Shown here: positions 47,069 through 59,167 of the stretch, piece after piece | Layout: every line of letters starts with the position of its first letter | Numbering within the stretch: position 1 is the stretch's first letter | Source of the DNA: an uncultured Planctomycetia bacterium | GTDB lineage: Bacteria > Omnitrophota > Gorgyraeia > VGKH01 > JBHPFN01 | Direction: 5' to 3' | NCBI GenBank assembly: GCA_964406665.1 | Contig: CAYOSQ010000006.1 | Span: 23,577-87,576 of the forward strand | DNA: 64,000 bases | Made by a program: the position numbers and the translations under genes | Notes under the pieces: model-generated | What the model was told of the DNA's origin: nothing | The model's input: the letters and a program-made list of their open reading frames with translations, nothing else | Databases searched by the model: none

Positions 47069-49581
47069 TAGTCCTCCTTTATAAGACATATTTCTCTCTT
47101 GGAAAGAAAATAACACGAAATTGAAGAAATCACTATTATACCAATCGTTATGTAGGTAATCGGCTTCCAACCAGCCGTAGAATAACCAAATAATACATAA
47201 GCAACTGCAGAAGCCACGAATAGTGAAATTAACGCACAGTGACTACAATGACAACCAACACCTTTTTCAGATTTCTTAAATATAGAATCGGGGAGCAAAG
47301 AAAATATACTCGGCAATATAAACAATGTTGCCAAGGATGAAACCGCCATAATGCTAAACATGAAAAATCCTACGGTTCTATAAGGAATAAGTGGTGCTGC
47401 TAAAAGAGGCAAAAATCCAATGGCAACAACTAAGGCATTGCGGATTATTGCCCTGCCCGGACCGGAAAACATCTCTTTAGAGGTTGTTTCCCAAGAACCT
47501 TTCTCTCTGTATATCTCAAGCGCTCTTTGAATAAAATGAATTGCAAAATCAATAGATAAACCTAAAGTCAGCGCAGAAAGAACGGCAACCGGCATATCAT
47601 AATCCTTACCCACAAAACCCAAAAAGCTGTAGATGAAAAGTATTGTTACAGTAAGCGGTATCATAGAAATCAAGGCTTTTACAGGAGAACGGAACAAAAA
47701 CAACATCATAAAAAGCACAATAAAGAAACTTCCGGCAAAATTCTTCAACATCCCCGTAACCATATTATTTTGCCATATAACATTAATATAAGTCTTTCCT
47801 GACCATTCATATTTTATCGGTAAAGGCGCAGGATTCTCAGAGATATATTCATCAACAAGATCAATTACCTTGCTCATATCTTTATTATCTCCGCTTTTCA
47901 ATTGAAACCAAATATTTAACTTTGAGTATGCCGGATTTGTTAAATGCCATAAATCATCGGGCTTGTGAGAATTTTCAAAAGAAATTAATGACTGGGCAAC
48001 CGCAGCCCTAGAATCAGGAATAACATTATTTTTCTCATCTCCCCCAAGCAATTCATAATATATTTTTTTAACTATATCAGATAAAGAAGTTGTCTTGCCC
48101 ACATATTTACTTTTATCGACTTCTGCCTGAAGATTTTCCACATATTTAAGCATTGACGGTTCGAGAAAAATCTCATCATCTTTATTTTCGGCCTCCAAAA
48201 CAAGATATGCTTCATAGGTTCCCGAGAAATGTTCATTAAGAACCTTATCCGCCACTCTTATGGGATGGTTTTTAGAAAACCAGCGCACAGGATTATCGTT
48301 AACTTGTATTTTGCTAATTCCATATAAAGAAACAATAACCAACAAAACAGTAAAGGCTAAAACAAATTTGAATTTTTTAAATATTATATTTCTAATAAAC
48401 AAAAGAACAGCATCTAAAACCCGAGAATGATTTTCCTTTCCAGACTTGGCAAGTTTTTCAAATTTATTCTTCTTAAGAAGCATAATAAAAGCCGGGATAA
48501 AAGTAATGGTAAGTATCCAGGCTACGAGCACCCCTACCGCAACAAATACTCCGAATACCTGCACCGGAGGAATAGGTGAAAACGATAACGAGAAAAAACC
48601 AACCGCAGAAGTAAGCGAAGTAAATAACATCGGAGAGAATAGTTCTTTTACAACATGATTAACTGTTTTCCGAGGGTCATGAAAATCTTTATACTTATCA
48701 AAAAACTCACTTAATATATGAACAGAGTCTAAAACCGCAATAGGCATTAAAAATATTGGTATCATGGAACTCATTATATGGACCGGAAAACCAAAAGCGA
48801 TCAGAAGCCCCATAGTAATCACCACAGTAGCAATCGCAACAAGCATAGGAGCGATAATCAGCGTTACGGATTTGAAAAACACCAACATCAAAAGGAAAAT
48901 AATCAAACCTGCCAGAGGAGCAGAAATTGCCATCTGCTTAAACATCTCAGCGCCAAACTGATCTTCCGCAACAGGAAGCCCGGTTACGTAAAATTTTTCG
49001 TCTCCGGGAAATTTAGCGGCAATCTGCTTAATCTCTTGAGAAACTTCATAACTAATATCTTTCTTCTCAATTGGAACATAAAGTGCAACAGCCTTACCGT
49101 TAGAAGATACAACGCTGTCTTTAAACATTGGGTGGCTCTGCGCCTGACGCCTTATTTCCAGGGCTTGTTCTTGAGTAACTGGCGGTTCTTCCATCAACCA
49201 GTTAAACCTAACCGAACCCAATCCTGCTTGCTCAACATTATCTTTTGTAGAAGGTGCAACTATCTCATACTCAATAACTCCGTCTATTTTTTTTATTTCA
49301 TCGGTTATCTGAGCAACTTTTTTGAGTGTAGATACATTAAATACGCCGTTTTTATGATTATCGTTTACTATGCCTAGTACGATAAAATCATAAAGGGCAA
49401 ATTCCTGCTTAACTTCACGGCTAAACACTCGAACCGGAGCATCATCCGCAAGCATATTTTCAGGGTCAGTATCTACTTTAATCCGAGGAAATTGAACCAA
49501 CGCAAGTAAAACTAAAGCTGCGGTAAAATAAACAATTACCTTAGGACGACTAATAGAGAAAGAAATTAGTTTTCTAAACAT
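47068..49581 (-). CDS. MMPL/RND-superfamily exporter
   Basis: 837 aa; two blocks of about six TM helices each preceded by a large periplasmic loop. Confidence 0.75.
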   Translation of the reverse strand: MFRKLISFSISRPKVIVYFTAALVLLALVQFPRIKVDTDPENMLADDAPVRVFSREVKQEFALYDFIVLGIVNDNHKNGVFNVSTLKKVAQITDEIKKIDGVIEYEIVAPSTKDNVEQAGLGSVRFNWLMEEPPVTQEQALEIRRQAQSHPMFKDSVVSSNGKAVALYVPIEKKDISYEVSQEIKQIAAKFPGDEKFYVTGLPVAEDQFGAEMFKQMAISAPLAGLIIFLLMLVFFKSVTLIIAPMLVAIATVVITMGLLIAFGFPVHIMSSMIPIFLMPIAVLDSVHILSEFFDKYKDFHDPRKTVNHVVKELFSPMLFTSLTSAVGFFSLSFSPIPPVQVFGVFVAVGVLVAWILTITFIPAFIMLLKKNKFEKLAKSGKENHSRVLDAVLLFIRNIIFKKFKFVLAFTVLLVIVSLYGISKIQVNDNPVRWFSKNHPIRVADKVLNEHFSGTYEAYLVLEAENKDDEIFLEPSMLKYVENLQAEVDKSKYVGKTTSLSDIVKKIYYELLGGDEKNNVIPDSRAAVAQSLISFENSHKPDDLWHLTNPAYSKLNIWFQLKSGDNKDMSKVIDLVDEYISENPAPLPIKYEWSGKTYINVIWQNNMVTGMLKNFAGSFFIVLFMMLFLFRSPVKALISMIPLTVTILFIYSFLGFVGKDYDMPVAVLSALTLGLSIDFAIHFIQRALEIYREKGSWETTSKEMFSGPGRAIIRNALVVAIGFLPLLAAPLIPYRTVGFFMFSIMAVSSLATLFILPSIFSLLPDSIFKKSEKGVGCHCSHCALISLFVASAVAYVLFGYSTAGWKPITYITIGIIVISSISCYFLSKREICLIKED

Positions 49582-55623: not shown

Positions 55624-56061
55624 CTAGGAATGTTGCTGTCTTATCTGACTAATCCATTCTTCGATCTTCTGTTTTATTTCTTCTCTTACTTCTCTAGTTT
55701 CCTGCAATTTTGCATCTTCAGTCCCAGAAAAAAGCGAAGGATTTTTGAAACTCCAATTTTGTCTTTTTGCATTACCGGGGAAAACGGGGCACTGTTGAGA
55801 GCTTGATTCATCACATACAGTAATTACATAATCATATATTCTTTCCTGTTTACAAAAATCAAAAGCGCTTTTGGTTTTATTTTGCGAGATATCGATTCCT
55901 ATTTCTTTCATTACCTGTACGACTAAAGGATTCAATGTCCCCGGCTTCAAACCAGCGCTTTCTGCTTCAAATCTATCAGGAGCACTATCATTTAAAAATG
56001 CCTCAGCCATTTGGCTACGAGCAGAATTGTGGATACAGACAAATAAAACTTTTTTCTTCAT
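55624..56061 (-). CDS. arsC: arsenate reductase-like LMW-PTP family protein (thioredoxin-coupled ArsC type)
   Basis: 145 aa; P-loop CIHNSARS (CX5R) and downstream Cys pair CDESSSQQC. Confidence 0.7.
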   Translation of the reverse strand: MKKKVLFVCIHNSARSQMAEAFLNDSAPDRFEAESAGLKPGTLNPLVVQVMKEIGIDISQNKTKSAFDFCKQERIYDYVITVCDESSSQQCPVFPGNAKRQNWSFKNPSLFSGTEDAKLQETREVREEIKQKIEEWISQIRQQHS

Positions 56062-56155
56062 CTAGGTTCTCCGTAGGCTTATTATTATACCGCAAACTTC
56101 TATAATAGTTAAAAACTTTTTGTAGCCGCTGCAGAGGGCGGGGTGACTACGACAT

Positions 56156-56186
56156 TATCATTTAGCTTCGTACTCTCGCTAAATGA
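56156..56186. repeat. palindromic hairpin element, copy 1 (10-bp perfect stem, 11-nt loop)
   Basis: atcatttagc-ttcgtactctc-gctaaatgat; paired with copy 2 differing by compensatory stem changes. Confidence 0.6.
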
Positions 56187-56193
56187 TTGCTAA

Positions 56194-56222
56194 CTACCCC
56201 GACAAAAAGCAGTCAGGGTGGC
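56194..56222. repeat. 29-nt conserved box, copy 1
   Basis: taccccgacaaaaagcagtcagggtggct; 26/29 identical to copy 2. Confidence 0.6.
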
Positions 56223-56275
56223 TTCCAACTTATAAATTACCTCGCGCTTCACGCTCCATAAGTTGTGTCGTCGTC

Positions 56276-56304
56276 TTACCCCGACAAAAAGCGGTCGGGA
56301 TGGC
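56276..56304. repeat. 29-nt conserved box, copy 2 (contains perfect 6-bp inverted repeat cccgac/gtcggg)
   Basis: taccccgacaaaaagcggtcgggatggct. Confidence 0.6.
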
Positions 56305-56312
56305 TGCGCACT

Positions 56313-56343
56313 TATCACTTAGCTTCGTAATCTCGCTAAGTGA
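56313..56343. repeat. palindromic hairpin element, copy 2
   Basis: atcacttagc-ttcgtaatctc-gctaagtgat; stem position 5 T>C with compensatory A>G versus copy 1. Confidence 0.6.
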
Positions 56344-56441
56344 TGTGCTTGCCAATTTTACAGGCGCCTAGAAAATTCAAGAAGTTGTAGTTAAATTAAC
56401 TACTTGCAATAAGTTACAACTCAATTTTAATAGTAGGTGGC

Positions 56442-56479
56442 AGTCTCCGCTTCCAAGCGGAGACTACCCCTTTTAACCC
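56442..56479 (+). terminator. plus-strand intrinsic-terminator-like hairpin inside the intergenic region
   Basis: 9-bp GC-rich stem agtctccgc/gcggagact with 6-nt loop, followed by accccTTTTaa. Confidence 0.4.
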
Positions 56480-56586
56480 ACACCTTAAATTTTCAGCCTC
56501 AAACAGCAAAATCATTAATATTTTATTCTTTGTCATTGAAATTTGGTTATTGATTATTATTTGTTGCTTGAGATTTGTAATTTTCT

Positions 56587-56600
56587 CGAGTACGTACTCG
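56587..56600. promoter_or_regulatory. perfect 14-bp palindrome CGAGTACGTACTCG (operator-like)
   Basis: Self-complementary; shares a TACGTA core with the palindromes at 58361-58383. Confidence 0.35.
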
Positions 56601-56791
56601 GGTACATACTCTTAAAAACGATTGATTCGTTTCCCCGAAACGTGAAATCAATCGTATGCCAACAGAACTACGCAGTGACTACTGTCTCTCTAAAGTAAAC
56701 TTTAGGGAGCAGTCCCGCGTTTTATGCGGGGCGTAGTCAAAAAAGAATTAAGACAACTCTGGGAATCTGCCTAATATTCCTTTCTTTATAT

Positions 56792-56820
56792 TTGACTTCT
56801 TACCTTAATCATGGTCTAAT
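56792..56820 (+). promoter_or_regulatory. candidate sigma-70-like promoter for the radical SAM gene (TTGACT-N17-TCTAAT)
   Basis: -35 TTGACT at 56792-56797, -10 TCTAAT at 56815-56820, ending 2-8 nt before the GTG/ATG start, so possibly a near-leaderless transcript. Confidence 0.3.
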
Positions 56821-56822
56821 AG

Positions 56823-58271
56823 GTGACTATGAAATATAAACACGCACTTTTTCTCTTTCCTTATATAGAGGGCAATGCAACAAGCACGATGAAACTGTTT
56901 CCGCCCCTAGGCCTTGAATATGTGGCCACCAGCGCAAAGGATTTAGTTGAAAAAATAACGCTCTTAGACCTACGATACGAACCAGAACTCTGCGATAAAA
57001 ATAGTCTCTTAGAATTTGTACGCCAAGAGATTGATATTGTCTGTGTCAACATTACCTGGGATCGTCAGTTTGACGAGATCTGTGATCTTTTAAATGGAAT
57101 ACCGCAAGGGATTCCTGTTATCGTCGGTGGCTACAAAGCAACTGAACGGGCCCAAGAAATACTAGAGCGCTGCCCTACTGTCGCTATGGTTGTGCGCGGC
57201 GAGGGTGAAGAAACCATACGAGATATTTTTCAAAATCATCCACCGGAAAAAATCGAAGGCATTTCCTATAGAAAGAACGGACAGATACAACATAATAAAT
57301 TTCGAGCCTTTCCCGAAGTCGATGCAATAGCAGCACCCGATAGAACCTTACGAAGAAATAAATATCATCTAATTTTAAACGGGGTCCGCACAACCAACGT
57401 AGAGTTTGATTCGGTCTTAAGCGCTCGGGGCTGTCCGTTTAATTGTAAATTTTGTACATTTAATCTCAACCCACTCGGCCAGAAGCGTCCCTATGCCGCG
57501 CGCAACGTTACCTCAGTTGTCGATGAAATAGAAGGACTAACGGCTACCGTCATCCTCTTAGCAGATGACGAATTTTTTGCCAATAAAAAAAGGGCCGAGG
57601 CATTTTGTGACGAGATCATAGCGCGTAAAATCAAAAAGCGGTTTATTGCACAATCACGTATCGATGTGGCCAAACACCCGCAGCTGCTTGGAAAGATGGT
57701 TAAAGCTGGTTTTAAAGCGCTTCTGGTAGGCATCGAATCTCCGACCGATTGGATTTTGAAACAGATGAACAAAGGTTTCGATTCACAAACAATCAGGGAT
57801 GCTTTTAAAGTTCTTAAAAAGTACCCGATTTATTACCACGGATATTTTATTTACGGAAATATCGGTGAGACCGAAGAAGAAATGCTCGTTATTCCTCAAT
57901 TTGCAAAAGAGATAGGCGTTGACGGCATTACGTTTAATAAACTCAGAATAGAAAAATTCTCATCACTAAGAGAACTGGCGGAGAAAACCCCAGGATACCA
58001 CGTTACCGATACCGGTGCTTTGTATTCTGATAAGTATAGCCACGCGGCTTTGAAAAAAATAGGCAGAAGAATGAGATTTTCTTTCTATACGCCTATGAGA
58101 TTTATGAAGATGATAAAACGTGTTTTTGTCGATGCTCACTTCTTTTCTGCAGGTGAACTGGCTTCCTTTGCTTTTAGCATCCCACTAATGCTCATCGCTG
58201 CTTTAAAAAGAGAAAAACAAAAAGGCCGCTTAGGCGACTCCCTCAAACGTATTTTTATAAAAAATAAATAA
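56823..58271 (+). CDS. B12-binding domain radical SAM protein (class B rSAM), function unknown
   Basis: 482 aa; N-terminal cobalamin-binding Rossmann-like region, CxxxCxxC cluster motif (CPFNCKFC), amphipathic/hydrophobic C-terminus. Start either GTG 56823 or ATG 56829. Confidence 0.8.
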   Translation: MTMKYKHALFLFPYIEGNATSTMKLFPPLGLEYVATSAKDLVEKITLLDLRYEPELCDKNSLLEFVRQEIDIVCVNITWDRQFDEICDLLNGIPQGIPVIVGGYKATERAQEILERCPTVAMVVRGEGEETIRDIFQNHPPEKIEGISYRKNGQIQHNKFRAFPEVDAIAAPDRTLRRNKYHLILNGVRTTNVEFDSVLSARGCPFNCKFCTFNLNPLGQKRPYAARNVTSVVDEIEGLTATVILLADDEFFANKKRAEAFCDEIIARKIKKRFIAQSRIDVAKHPQLLGKMVKAGFKALLVGIESPTDWILKQMNKGFDSQTIRDAFKVLKKYPIYYHGYFIYGNIGETEEEMLVIPQFAKEIGVDGITFNKLRIEKFSSLRELAEKTPGYHVTDTGALYSDKYSHAALKKIGRRMRFSFYTPMRFMKMIKRVFVDAHFFSAGELASFAFSIPLMLIAALKREKQKGRLGDSLKRIFIKNK

Positions 58272-58308
58272 AAGTAGCGCAAAGACTAAGAAAATCTAAA
58301 CAAAAGTA

Positions 58309-58338
58309 CTGTCATTTTTGACAGGGCTTTTTGATTTT
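58309..58338 (+). terminator. terminator-like hairpin downstream of the radical SAM gene
   Basis: Short stem ctgtca/tgacag with tttt loop followed by ggcTTTTTgaTTTT. Confidence 0.4.
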
Positions 58339-58360
58339 GGTTACAAAGAGCAAAAAATTT

Positions 58361-58383
58361 GACTACGTAGTGACTACGTAGTC
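58361..58383. promoter_or_regulatory. tandem 10-bp palindromes ACTACGTAGT x2 (operator-like)
   Basis: gACTACGTAGTgACTACGTAGTc, about 80-110 nt upstream of the 154-aa ORF; each unit self-complementary. Confidence 0.4.
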
Positions 58384-58461
58384 GAAAAACAATCGCATCA
58401 CGAGCAAAGCAAATAAGTGTAAAACTCCATAGACTCCTTTCTTGACTAATAAGTTTTAAGG

Positions 58462-58926
58462 GTGTTTAATATGTATATGAATATCCTACTAAAAATATTA
58501 CAACATCATTTATTTGCACCAATCTGCTTAGCATCTATACTTGGTCTAATGCTGTGGAAAACATTTACCGAATGGCGTAGACCTCGTTTAAAAATTGGAA
58601 GATTTGACATTAAAGTTCTTCCAACTAACCCTGTTTTAGACAAGAAACACGAAAAGCGAGTAACTGTTGTTGTGTTTTTTGAAGTTAGAAACAAAAGTTC
58701 TTTAGATAATTCATTAGTAAAAAAGATTTATACACTTGATGGTGCTACTGAACCAATAGAGCGTTCCTCGCATTTAACTGTTAAAGGCAATACTACTGAA
58801 ACAGAGAGTAATTTGTCTGTCCATTTTACCCTGCCAAATGAAGAACCAAAAAACCGTAGGTTCACTATCAAGATTATTGACCATTTCAATAAGAAGCATT
58901 CCGTCAGCAAGTTTCTGAAAATATAA
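58462..58926 (+). CDS. membrane-anchored hypothetical protein
   Basis: 154 aa (ORF-track start is GTG; ATG alternatives at 58471 and 58477); one N-terminal TM helix, beta-rich C-terminal region; no recognised motif. Confidence 0.45.
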   Translation: MFNMYMNILLKILQHHLFAPICLASILGLMLWKTFTEWRRPRLKIGRFDIKVLPTNPVLDKKHEKRVTVVVFFEVRNKSSLDNSLVKKIYTLDGATEPIERSSHLTVKGNTTETESNLSVHFTLPNEEPKNRRFTIKIIDHFNKKHSVSKFLKI

Positions 58927-59040
58927 TATAATTCTCCGAGTATGTTTATATATAGCTAGGGGTGGCTGGGGGGGTTACCGTGGCGTCACCGTGGCGTTTT
59001 AGATAGAAAAACACACCAATTTAGACAAATTCATACAAAT

Positions 59041-59090: not shown

Positions 59091-59167
<77 letters not shown>

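Follow-up and report, generated by a model that had tools for sequence, protein, structure and literature searches.

A strongly structured, locally triplicated orphan noncoding region between the divergent genes arsC and radical SAM in an uncultured member of the Omnitrophota

The 64-kb stretch of DNA analysed here (the window), from an uncultured Omnitrophota bacterium, is tightly packed with genes on either side of a 761-bp spacer (56062-56822) that separates a divergent pair, arsC on the minus strand and a radical SAM gene on the plus strand (Table 1). This spacer is a real, strongly structured, locally triplicated and orphan noncoding region, represented by one genome. It is the longest stretch of the window without open reading frames (ORFs); the other gaps of about 700 bp, taken from the list of ORFs of at least 120 aa, hold shorter genes, which bears out the unusual length pointed out in a first-pass annotation made from the sequence alone. 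The longest ORF in 56062-56822 reaches at most 62 aa, none of the small ORFs has a convincing ribosome-binding site, and neither the spacer ORFs nor six-frame translations of the region match Pfam. A protein-coding gene or pseudogene is thereby rejected, in agreement with the earlier statement that the spacer holds no convincing ORF. The GC content of its repeated segment is 49%, against a window mean of roughly 36%.

What had been described as separate hairpins and boxes are, by three-way alignment, parts of three tandem diverged units of 74-83 nt (56120-56350), which share direct repeats of 55 nt (80% identity) and 48 nt (81% identity). Two hairpins are predicted in every unit, its diverged sequence included. 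The better-kept modules are of two kinds. The H hairpin (ATCAYTTAGC-N11-GCTAARTGAT) has a perfect 10-bp stem and an 11-nt loop, and its two copies agree in 28 of 31 positions and are separated by 157 bp, or about 15 helical turns; both exist as annotated, at coordinates one base further to the right, and both the single loop difference and the compensatory T-A to C-G change in the stem (56161/56183 versus 56318/56340) are confirmed. In unit C, the H stem is lengthened by GCAC/GTGC to 56308-56348. The two 29-nt boxes lie where they had been placed, 82 bp apart and hence out of helical phase, with an identity of 25/29 instead of the 26/29 given. The box hairpin of unit B has 8 bp, including one U.G pair on the minus strand that is a C.A mismatch on the plus strand, and the hairpin of this unit is out of register with those of units A and C. 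On the minus strand, the loops kept between copies read GAGAKUACGAA and YGCUUUUU.

To the right of the units follow a multi-helix domain, an AT-rich core and a series of palindromes. The nested palindrome, the perfect 14-bp palindrome and a hairpin at 56714-56730 are present exactly or essentially as first described. The GC-rich, terminator-like hairpin is real and is followed by CCCCTTTT, its proper position being 56439-56468 and not 56442-56479; likewise, a hairpin reported at 56630-56670 exists at 56618-56655. The single mismatch of the GC-rich hairpin is a U.G pair on the minus strand. The ACTAC-framed element folds as a three-way junction (56676 to about 56740) closed by TGACTAC/GTAGTCA.

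Table 1. Features of the spacer and its borders, with positions in the window
Feature	Position	Strand	Description
arsC	55624-56061	-	LMWPc-type arsenate reductase; ATG at 56061, GGAG ribosome-binding site
TTAACT-17-TATAAT	56084-56112	-	promoter-like (10/12), just upstream of arsC; from promoter scan
TATAAT	56101-56106	+	perfect hexamer with weak -35; read from the sequence, not among promoter-scan matches
Unit A	56120-56193		first hairpin diverged, GTAG...CTAC 56122-56150; second hairpin H, well kept, 56157-56187
Unit B	56194-56276		first hairpin box, well kept, 56196-56219; second hairpin diverged, 56226-56265
Unit C	56277-56350		box hairpin 56278-56301 and H hairpin 56314-56344; only unit with both modules intact
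Multi-helix domain	56365-56498		nested palindromes, GC-rich hairpin and AT-rich outer helix 56371-56381/56484-56494
Nested palindromes	56382-56421		within multi-helix domain
GC-rich hairpin	56439-56468		14-nt arms with one mismatch; CCCCTTTT follows on + strand
AT-rich core	56480-56586		24% GC; weak promoter-like hexamers on both strands
TTGTCA-16-GATTAT	56530-56557	+	weak promoter-like, in AT-rich core
ATTACA-17-AATAAT	56581-56553	-	weak promoter-like, in AT-rich core
Perfect 14-bp palindrome	56587-56600		CGAGTACGTACTCG; 12-bp core GAGTACGTACTC
Compound hairpin	56618-56655		10-bp and 6-bp stems; TTTTT follows on - strand (to 56613)
ACTAC-framed element	56666-56745	+	ACTACGCAGTGACTAC 56667-56682; hairpins 56686-56709 and about 56713-56731; GTAGTCA 56733-56739
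TTGACT-17-TCTAAT	56792-56820	+	promoter-like, just before radical SAM ATG; -10 without the usual A at position 2
Radical SAM gene	56829-58271	+	B12-binding and Radical_SAM domains; ATG at 56829
Perfect 11-1-11 palindrome	58361-58383		GACTACGTAGT-G-ACTACGTAGTC; between radical SAM terminator and next gene, outside the spacer

The folding of the spacer is far from random. Measured against dinucleotide shuffles (100-200 per region), none of which was as good as the real sequence, 56100-56500 has z-scores of -5.8 on the plus and -7.7 on the minus strand, 56360-56500 of -6.2 on the minus strand, and 56560-56830 of about -5.2 and about -5.3 on the plus and minus strands, respectively. In a GC-corrected sliding scan of all 64 kb in 400-nt segments, those of the spacer are the top outliers, at -4.0 standard deviations (SD) on the plus and -5.5 SD on the minus strand. 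The only other plus-strand folding outlier in the window is 58301-58700 (-3.4 SD). The predicted energy of 56100-56500 is lower on the minus strand (-147.9 versus -127.7 kcal/mol), mostly through 56360-56500 (-53.1 versus -38.1 kcal/mol), whereas that of the three-way junction (about 56676-56745) is lower on the plus strand (-35.2 versus -25.4 kcal/mol). None of this structure belongs to a family that we could name: Rfam 15 at its gathering threshold yields only a tRNA-Met (59094-59167) in the whole window and nothing in the spacer; at E <= 10, 55900-57000 yields five matches of 12-20 bits, compared to thresholds of 50-100, all to eukaryotic or plastid families; and ARAGORN finds neither tRNA nor transfer-messenger RNA (tmRNA) in the spacer. 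The first-pass annotation likewise did not match it to tRNA, tmRNA, RNase P, signal recognition particle or 6S RNA.

Are these structures kept by selection, as the first-pass annotation proposed? Differences affect 6 of 59 positions in the well-kept modules, compared to 14 of 44 in the linkers (Fisher p = 0.011, with boundaries chosen post hoc). Within the modules, one U-A pair of the H stem is replaced by C-G in the other copy, and the box stems carry two one-sided C-to-U changes, which leave U.G pairs on the minus strand and C.A mismatches on the plus strand. By their sequence, the compensatory pair and the wobble changes agree with selection for base pairing. On the other hand, 263 of 500 shuffles do as well in the count of covarying pairs; with two sequences per hairpin, this test is without statistical power. 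Moreover, hairpin-templated correction, that is, template switching at quasi-palindromes, can yield mirrored 'compensatory' changes without selection. The proposal thus retains the non-random folding, the better conservation of modules than of linkers and the few pairing-preserving changes, and finds no backing in covariation.

Comparison beyond this genome is limited by the isolation of the lineage. Named homologues of the radical SAM and ArsC proteins come almost exclusively from Omnitrophota metagenome-assembled genomes (MAGs), with best matches of 78% and 73% amino-acid identity, respectively, identical marine metagenome sequences aside; the radical SAM orthologue occurs across the phylum. 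Seven contigs of the same strain carry the entire spacer and three more its left part, and since they are 100% identical, they hold no comparative information. Independent assemblies end at 56397 (L009, L010) and 56449 (L004), the centres of the palindromes 56387-56403 and 56439-56468, probably by breakage at inverted repeats and not at repeat boundaries. An alignment with related spacers, as first suggested, finds little to work on: blastn and nhmmer detect no DNA similar to the spacer in the first three orthologous loci (four contigs, L011-L014), and the radical SAM loci of six relatives (69-78% identity) show no synteny and are unrelated in upstream sequence, upstream length and neighbours, one upstream region being a 50-bp gap inside an operon, one carrying tRNA genes and the rest being unrelated. 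The divergent arsC/radical SAM arrangement is kept in none of the six, so that there is no orthologous spacer to compare. BLAST against phage and plasmid records gives no match to the spacer, and a hairpin motif search finds no further copies in 72.5 kb (the window and 8.5 kb beyond) or in strain-variant contigs. Exact-core scans give no match in viral contigs, ten matches of the box 21-mer in genome contigs (about four being expected by chance) from about five unrelated families in other phyla, and zero and six matches, all unrelated, in metagenomes; the ten and six matches of the 21-mer are close to chance expectation and fall in unrelated coding regions and hairpin repeats of other phyla; these collection scans did not return the source contigs themselves, and the rest of this genome lay outside their reach. 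The check for a dispersed repeat, likewise suggested at the outset, accordingly extends to 72.5 kb of this genome. The sequence CCCCGAC-AAAAAGCN-GTCGGGG occurs in dispersed intergenic repeats of Zixibacteria MAG275 (L017, L019, L023) and Melioribacteraceae S145_16 (L018, L020), and also in L028; judged by sequence, the Zixibacteria and Melioribacteraceae repeats share only the 21-mer with the box, a likeness that would be due to chance or to convergence on a hairpin with a GC stem and an A-rich loop.

What can be discerned from all this about the role of the spacer? We tentatively favour a lineage-specific structured noncoding RNA locus, with the repeated stem-loops as recognition sites and with operator-like palindromes in its right third; its transcription, its strand and its service as a binding platform are what we infer. 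In this scenario, the spacer would be composite. At its edges would lie the proximal promoter of arsC, on the minus strand, and probably that of the radical SAM gene, on the plus strand; the part between them would be a noncoding locus acting as structured RNA, formed by the units at 56120-56350 and the ensuing multi-helix domain of about 135 nt. The repeated stem-loops would be sites on the transcript recognised by an RNA-binding protein or a partner RNA, in which case stems and loops are expected to be kept while linkers drift. The right third (56587-56745) would in addition carry operator-like palindromes shared with the next gene. In favour of this reading are a folding far beyond that of shuffled sequences on both strands; the GC enrichment and lack of coding signal in a stretch that is, within a tightly packed window, the longest without ORFs, long GC-enriched intergenic regions of AT-rich genomes being enriched for structured RNAs; a two-hairpin layout that all three homologous units keep despite their divergence; modules better kept than linkers, with a compensatory H pair and minus-strand wobble changes; and promoter-like and terminator-like elements on either side of the structured parts.

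The arrangement of these last elements can be read in two ways. The best promoter-like site of the spacer is that before arsC. On the opposite strand, the perfect TATAAT is a candidate for a start near 56113 of a plus-strand transcript through the tandem units. No terminator-like site was found by scanning either strand of 56120-56350, and no unit hairpin has a U-tract after it. The compound hairpin with its run of T (56613-56655), whose energies are equal on both strands, may be terminator-like for a minus-strand transcript or a plain hairpin in a plus-strand leader. The site at 56792-56820 is a candidate for the proximal promoter of the radical SAM gene, and the next gene is preceded by the same layout, TTGACT-17-TTTAAT. 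Between these two genes, 3' of the radical SAM gene, lies a canonical intrinsic terminator (58310-58340; CTGTCA-TTTT-TGACAG, then GGCTTTTTGATTTT). The placement of promoter-like and terminator-like sites suggests two convergent small-RNA genes: one on the plus strand, of about 365 nt, which would extend from the TATAAT (56101) as far as the hairpin with its U-tract (about 56476), and as its corollary a second, on the minus strand, which would end at the hairpin and T5 of 56655-56613. The pattern of predicted energies and wobble pairs, minus-strand on the left and plus-strand on the right, suggests instead divergent long leaders that would start in the AT-rich core and extend on the minus strand toward arsC and on the plus strand toward the radical SAM gene.

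Several points weigh against a structured RNA. The signals for its strand conflict, energies and wobble pairs favouring the minus strand for 56120-56500 and the plus strand for 56676-56745, and promoter and terminator signals the reverse. As the promoter-like site of arsC is downstream of the array, the array need not belong to the arsC mRNA. Long near-perfect stems with about the same foldability on either strand characterise DNA palindromes no less than RNA. One module has been lost from unit A and one from unit B, which looks like decay. Finally, the spacer matches no Rfam family, no homologue was found, and the orthologous genes have no copy in front of them, which leaves no source of independent covariation beyond the array.

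The surroundings of the spacer show signs of rearrangement. The closest relative with an ArsC match (72%), L012, has arsC and the radical SAM gene on one strand, with arsC 2.7 kb further downstream and an ACR3/SBF-type transporter after it. In the window, arsC has the opposite orientation, borders directly on the spacer and has mscS after it, which places the spacer at a rearrangement breakpoint. Strain contigs with an identity of 99.8-99.9% elsewhere part from the window exactly at 59097, in the 3' end of the tRNA-Met (59091-59167). Beside this tRNA, the variant contig L032 (1-5460) encodes a large serine recombinase, a DUF2924 protein, an HTH_17 excisionase-like protein and one of 827 aa; the junction is also seen in L002 (1-624), and the tRNA-Met-adjacent DNA is a strain-variable integrated element. 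A direct repeat at 58978-58998 (CCGTGGCGT-CA-CCGTGGCGT, then TTTT) lies between a 154-aa gene and tRNA-Met, and this stretch is only 91-93% identical among strain contigs with nearly identical flanks. A tyrosine integrase lies at about 72 kb. In the relative SM23_29 (L013/L014:5470-5830), the radical SAM orthologue comes after a pair of tRNA genes and a second copy of a tRNA 3' end, GGGTTCGAGTCCTCTACCGCCCACCA being present twice about 230 bp apart; the duplication is an integration scar, and radical SAM orthologues tend to neighbour tRNA integration hotspots.

Such a setting brings up the main rival to a structured RNA, somewhat less probable than it, namely that the spacer is functionless or selfish palindromic DNA: a local triplication together with hairpins resembling repetitive extragenic palindromic (REP) sequences or miniature inverted-repeat transposable elements, with nested insertions, in a rearrangement-prone stretch where quasi-palindrome correction, and not selection, would keep the stems perfect. 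The near symmetry of foldability between strands and the long, near-perfect stems agree with this, as do the mosaic decay, with the box lost in unit A and H in unit B, and the occurrence of the ACTAC frame both in a short form and in a long form with a 50-nt two-hairpin insert. So do the recombinogenic surroundings, namely the divergence at 59097 in tRNA-Met, the serine recombinase element and the integrase at about 72 kb, and a gene order around arsC and the radical SAM gene that differs in every relative. Several spacer hairpins have GTAG/CTAC at their start or end, as is the case in REPs. However, no further hairpin copy exists in 72.5 kb of the same genome, and the viral, genome and metagenome scans returned none attributable to the lineage. 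At least seven unrelated hairpin sequences do not make one family, and the homology of the unit linkers shows that the copies stem from local duplication and not from independent insertion. Further, modules are kept better than linkers, selfish repeats are usually rare in the divergent 5'-5' spacers of compact genomes, and the spacer carries no Y1-transposase signal.

The right third of the spacer raises a different question. ACTAC/GTAGT occurs eight times in the spacer, where 0.92 are expected (p ~6e-6 uncorrected, ~0.003 corrected), and of the six TGACTAC sites in 64 kb, one is at 47240 and the other five flank the radical SAM gene. The 16-mer ACTACGYAGTGACTAC is found at 56667-56682 and 58362-58377, the latter in a perfect palindrome (58361-58383) that is a short paralogue of the frame at 56666-56745, the upstream copy being split by the 50-nt insert. 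Both frames end about 90-94 nt before the ATG of the downstream gene and are followed by a similar TTGACT-17-TNTAAT. The 14-bp palindrome has a TACGTA core in common with this family, and its core GAGTACGTACTC differs from GACTACGTAGTC (58372-58383) solely by a symmetric G/C swap. In three of six relatives, GTAGTC/ACTAC is nominally enriched in the 200 nt before the radical SAM orthologue, and in two the enrichment is missing, a weak and post hoc result. By their sequence and placement, the ACTAC/TACGTA palindromes look like a DNA operator or upstream site shared by two plus-strand genes. The near-identical ACTACGYAGTGACTAC frames flank the radical SAM gene in direct orientation, and could be a shared operator or old recombination sites. 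The dimeric-regulator operators proposed in the first-pass annotation are thus partly supported, before the radical SAM and the next gene and for a motif other than the one it named.

Could the hairpins as a whole be operators, H (10-11-10) and the ACTAC/TACGTA palindromes binding dimeric regulators of both divergent promoters as double-stranded DNA, possibly with looping? We consider this unlikely. It would suit a divergent promoter region whose array begins right upstream of the arsC -35, the excess of ACTAC/GTAGT and clustering of TGACTAC around the radical SAM gene, the recurrence of ACTACGYAGTGACTAC before this and the next gene at similar distances from ATG and promoter-like site, and the nominal enrichment in half of the relatives. 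However, two operators read by a single protein would not be expected to show the mirrored T-A to C-G change, arms of 10 bp around an 11-nt spacer exceed the usual size of an operator, and the boxes are out of helical phase. There is no adjacent regulator gene; the Rrf2 gene about 2 kb away is without TGACTAC upstream. The enrichment in relatives is post hoc and fails in two of six, and identity with CIRCE does not hold, the arms not being TTAGCACTC and the spacing being 11 instead of 9.

Within the scenario of a structured RNA, a more specific and decidedly doubtful version has the triplicated two-hairpin modules and the multi-helix domain form a modular noncoding RNA of about 370-430 nt, of a kind so far undescribed, in this marine lineage; encoded next to its targets, it would regulate the radical SAM gene and the neighbouring gene in antisense fashion. 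It is based on the minus-strand linker of unit A, AUGUCGUAGUCACC (56155-56142), which pairs at 13 of 14 positions, one of them G.U, with the radical SAM start GGUGACUAUGAAAU (56822-56835), and on a GUAGUCAC motif complementary to GUGACUAC sites upstream of both plus-strand genes. Read as a direct match, GGTGACTACGACAT (56142-56155) agrees with GGTGACTATGAAAT (56822-56835, across the start codon) at 12 of 14 positions, which is near chance (p ~0.05-0.1 by our own estimate).

Two further functions were considered. A riboswitch or conserved cis-leader of the B12-binding radical SAM gene, suggested at the outset, could account for the strong predicted plus-strand structure in 56560-56830 (z -5.2) and for the three-way junction at 56676-56745, 10 kcal/mol better on that strand. 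It is nevertheless most improbable and, as far as sequence comparison goes, appears largely refuted by lack of conservation: the regions upstream of the orthologue in six relatives share neither sequence nor length, Rfam gives no match even at E <= 10, the stems are simple and near-perfect, without the irregular conserved junctions of aptamers, and a promoter-like site abuts the start codon. The suggestion was hence not borne out. Hardly credible is a chromosomal replication origin, to which the orientation of genes might point. Over 476-56061, all 54 ORFs of at least 120 aa lie on the minus strand, and the GC skew there is consistently negative; gene orientation changes at the spacer, which ends this 56-kb run and contains a core of 24% GC and a repeated short motif. 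Yet the flip is local: only four plus-strand genes (56.8-58.9 kb and 60.9-63.4 kb) break the run, and from 63.4 kb to at least 72.5 kb the genes are again on the minus strand. Furthermore, 56000-56900 has no perfect DnaA box and a single one with one mismatch, which is inside arsC, neither dnaA nor dnaN is nearby, and TRACTAC departs from TTATCCACA at conserved positions. With no cluster of DnaA boxes and the resumption of the minus-strand run, oriC is rejected.

If transcribed, the spacer would be among the first candidate regulatory RNAs for Omnitrophota, an uncultured and ecologically widespread phylum for which a full-text literature search found no paper that combines it with noncoding RNA; it would then be a structured RNA linked to an arsenate reductase/stress operon and a phylum-wide radical SAM enzyme. 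If it is palindromic debris, it would offer a small example of hairpin accumulation in places prone to rearrangement. In both cases, the spacer is an orphan resting on one genome, which cannot be generalised at present.

How does the spacer compare with known systems? Several can be set aside. Type III toxin-antitoxin repeats (ToxI-like, roughly 34-51 nt) are near-identical and directly precede the gene of an endoribonuclease toxin, and our units are 74-83 nt long, about 70-80% identical and neighboured by genes for arsenate reductase and a radical SAM enzyme. Integron attC sites (RYYYAAC...GTTRRRY) are not matched by the frames ACTACGYAGTGACTAC...GTAGTC, and no intI is adjacent. A CIRCE/HrcA operator (TTAGCACTC-N9-GAGTGCTAA, at chaperone genes) differs from H in arm order and spacing, and H adjoins arsC and the radical SAM gene. 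In general, the perfect 14-bp, 11-1-11 and 10-11-10 repeats and the motif before two neighbouring genes recall palindromic operators (CIRCE, 9-9-9; NsrR/Rrf2-type, 11-1-11), but the sequences fit neither consensus, and the mirrored H substitution argues for pairing and not for protein readout. With REP/BIME, BOX and miniature palindromic repeats, the spacer shares a modular, mosaic cluster of stable GC-rich imperfect palindromes, a nested insertion and GTAG/CTAC at several hairpin feet. Unlike these, it has many unrelated hairpin sequences, a local tandem duplication and a site between divergent promoters, and dispersed copies were found neither in 72.5 kb nor in the collections, whose scans did not return the source contigs; nor is a RAYT/Y1 or other transposase encoded in the spacer (six-frame Pfam) or by the genes called at 45.6-72.5 kb, where the distant integrase is the only such gene. 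Among RNAs, a protein-sequestering RNA of the CsrB/RsmZ type, with many GGA loops, is not what we see: the conserved loops are those given above, no GGA- or CA-type loop motif is shared, and a single UGGA loop is found in the GC-rich hairpin on the minus strand. The units also differ from the tandem small-RNA arrays of the NsiR1/LhrC type, as they have no promoters and terminators of their own. While it has just two good copies per hairpin and no homologues, the spacer does resemble lineage-specific small RNAs and leaders made of duplicated stem-loops (CsrB/RsmZ/CrcZ; PrrF1/2, LhrC1-5, NsiR1) in being long, intergenic and GC-enriched, and in combining repeated stem-loops, conserved loops and diverging linkers with promoter-like and terminator-like borders.

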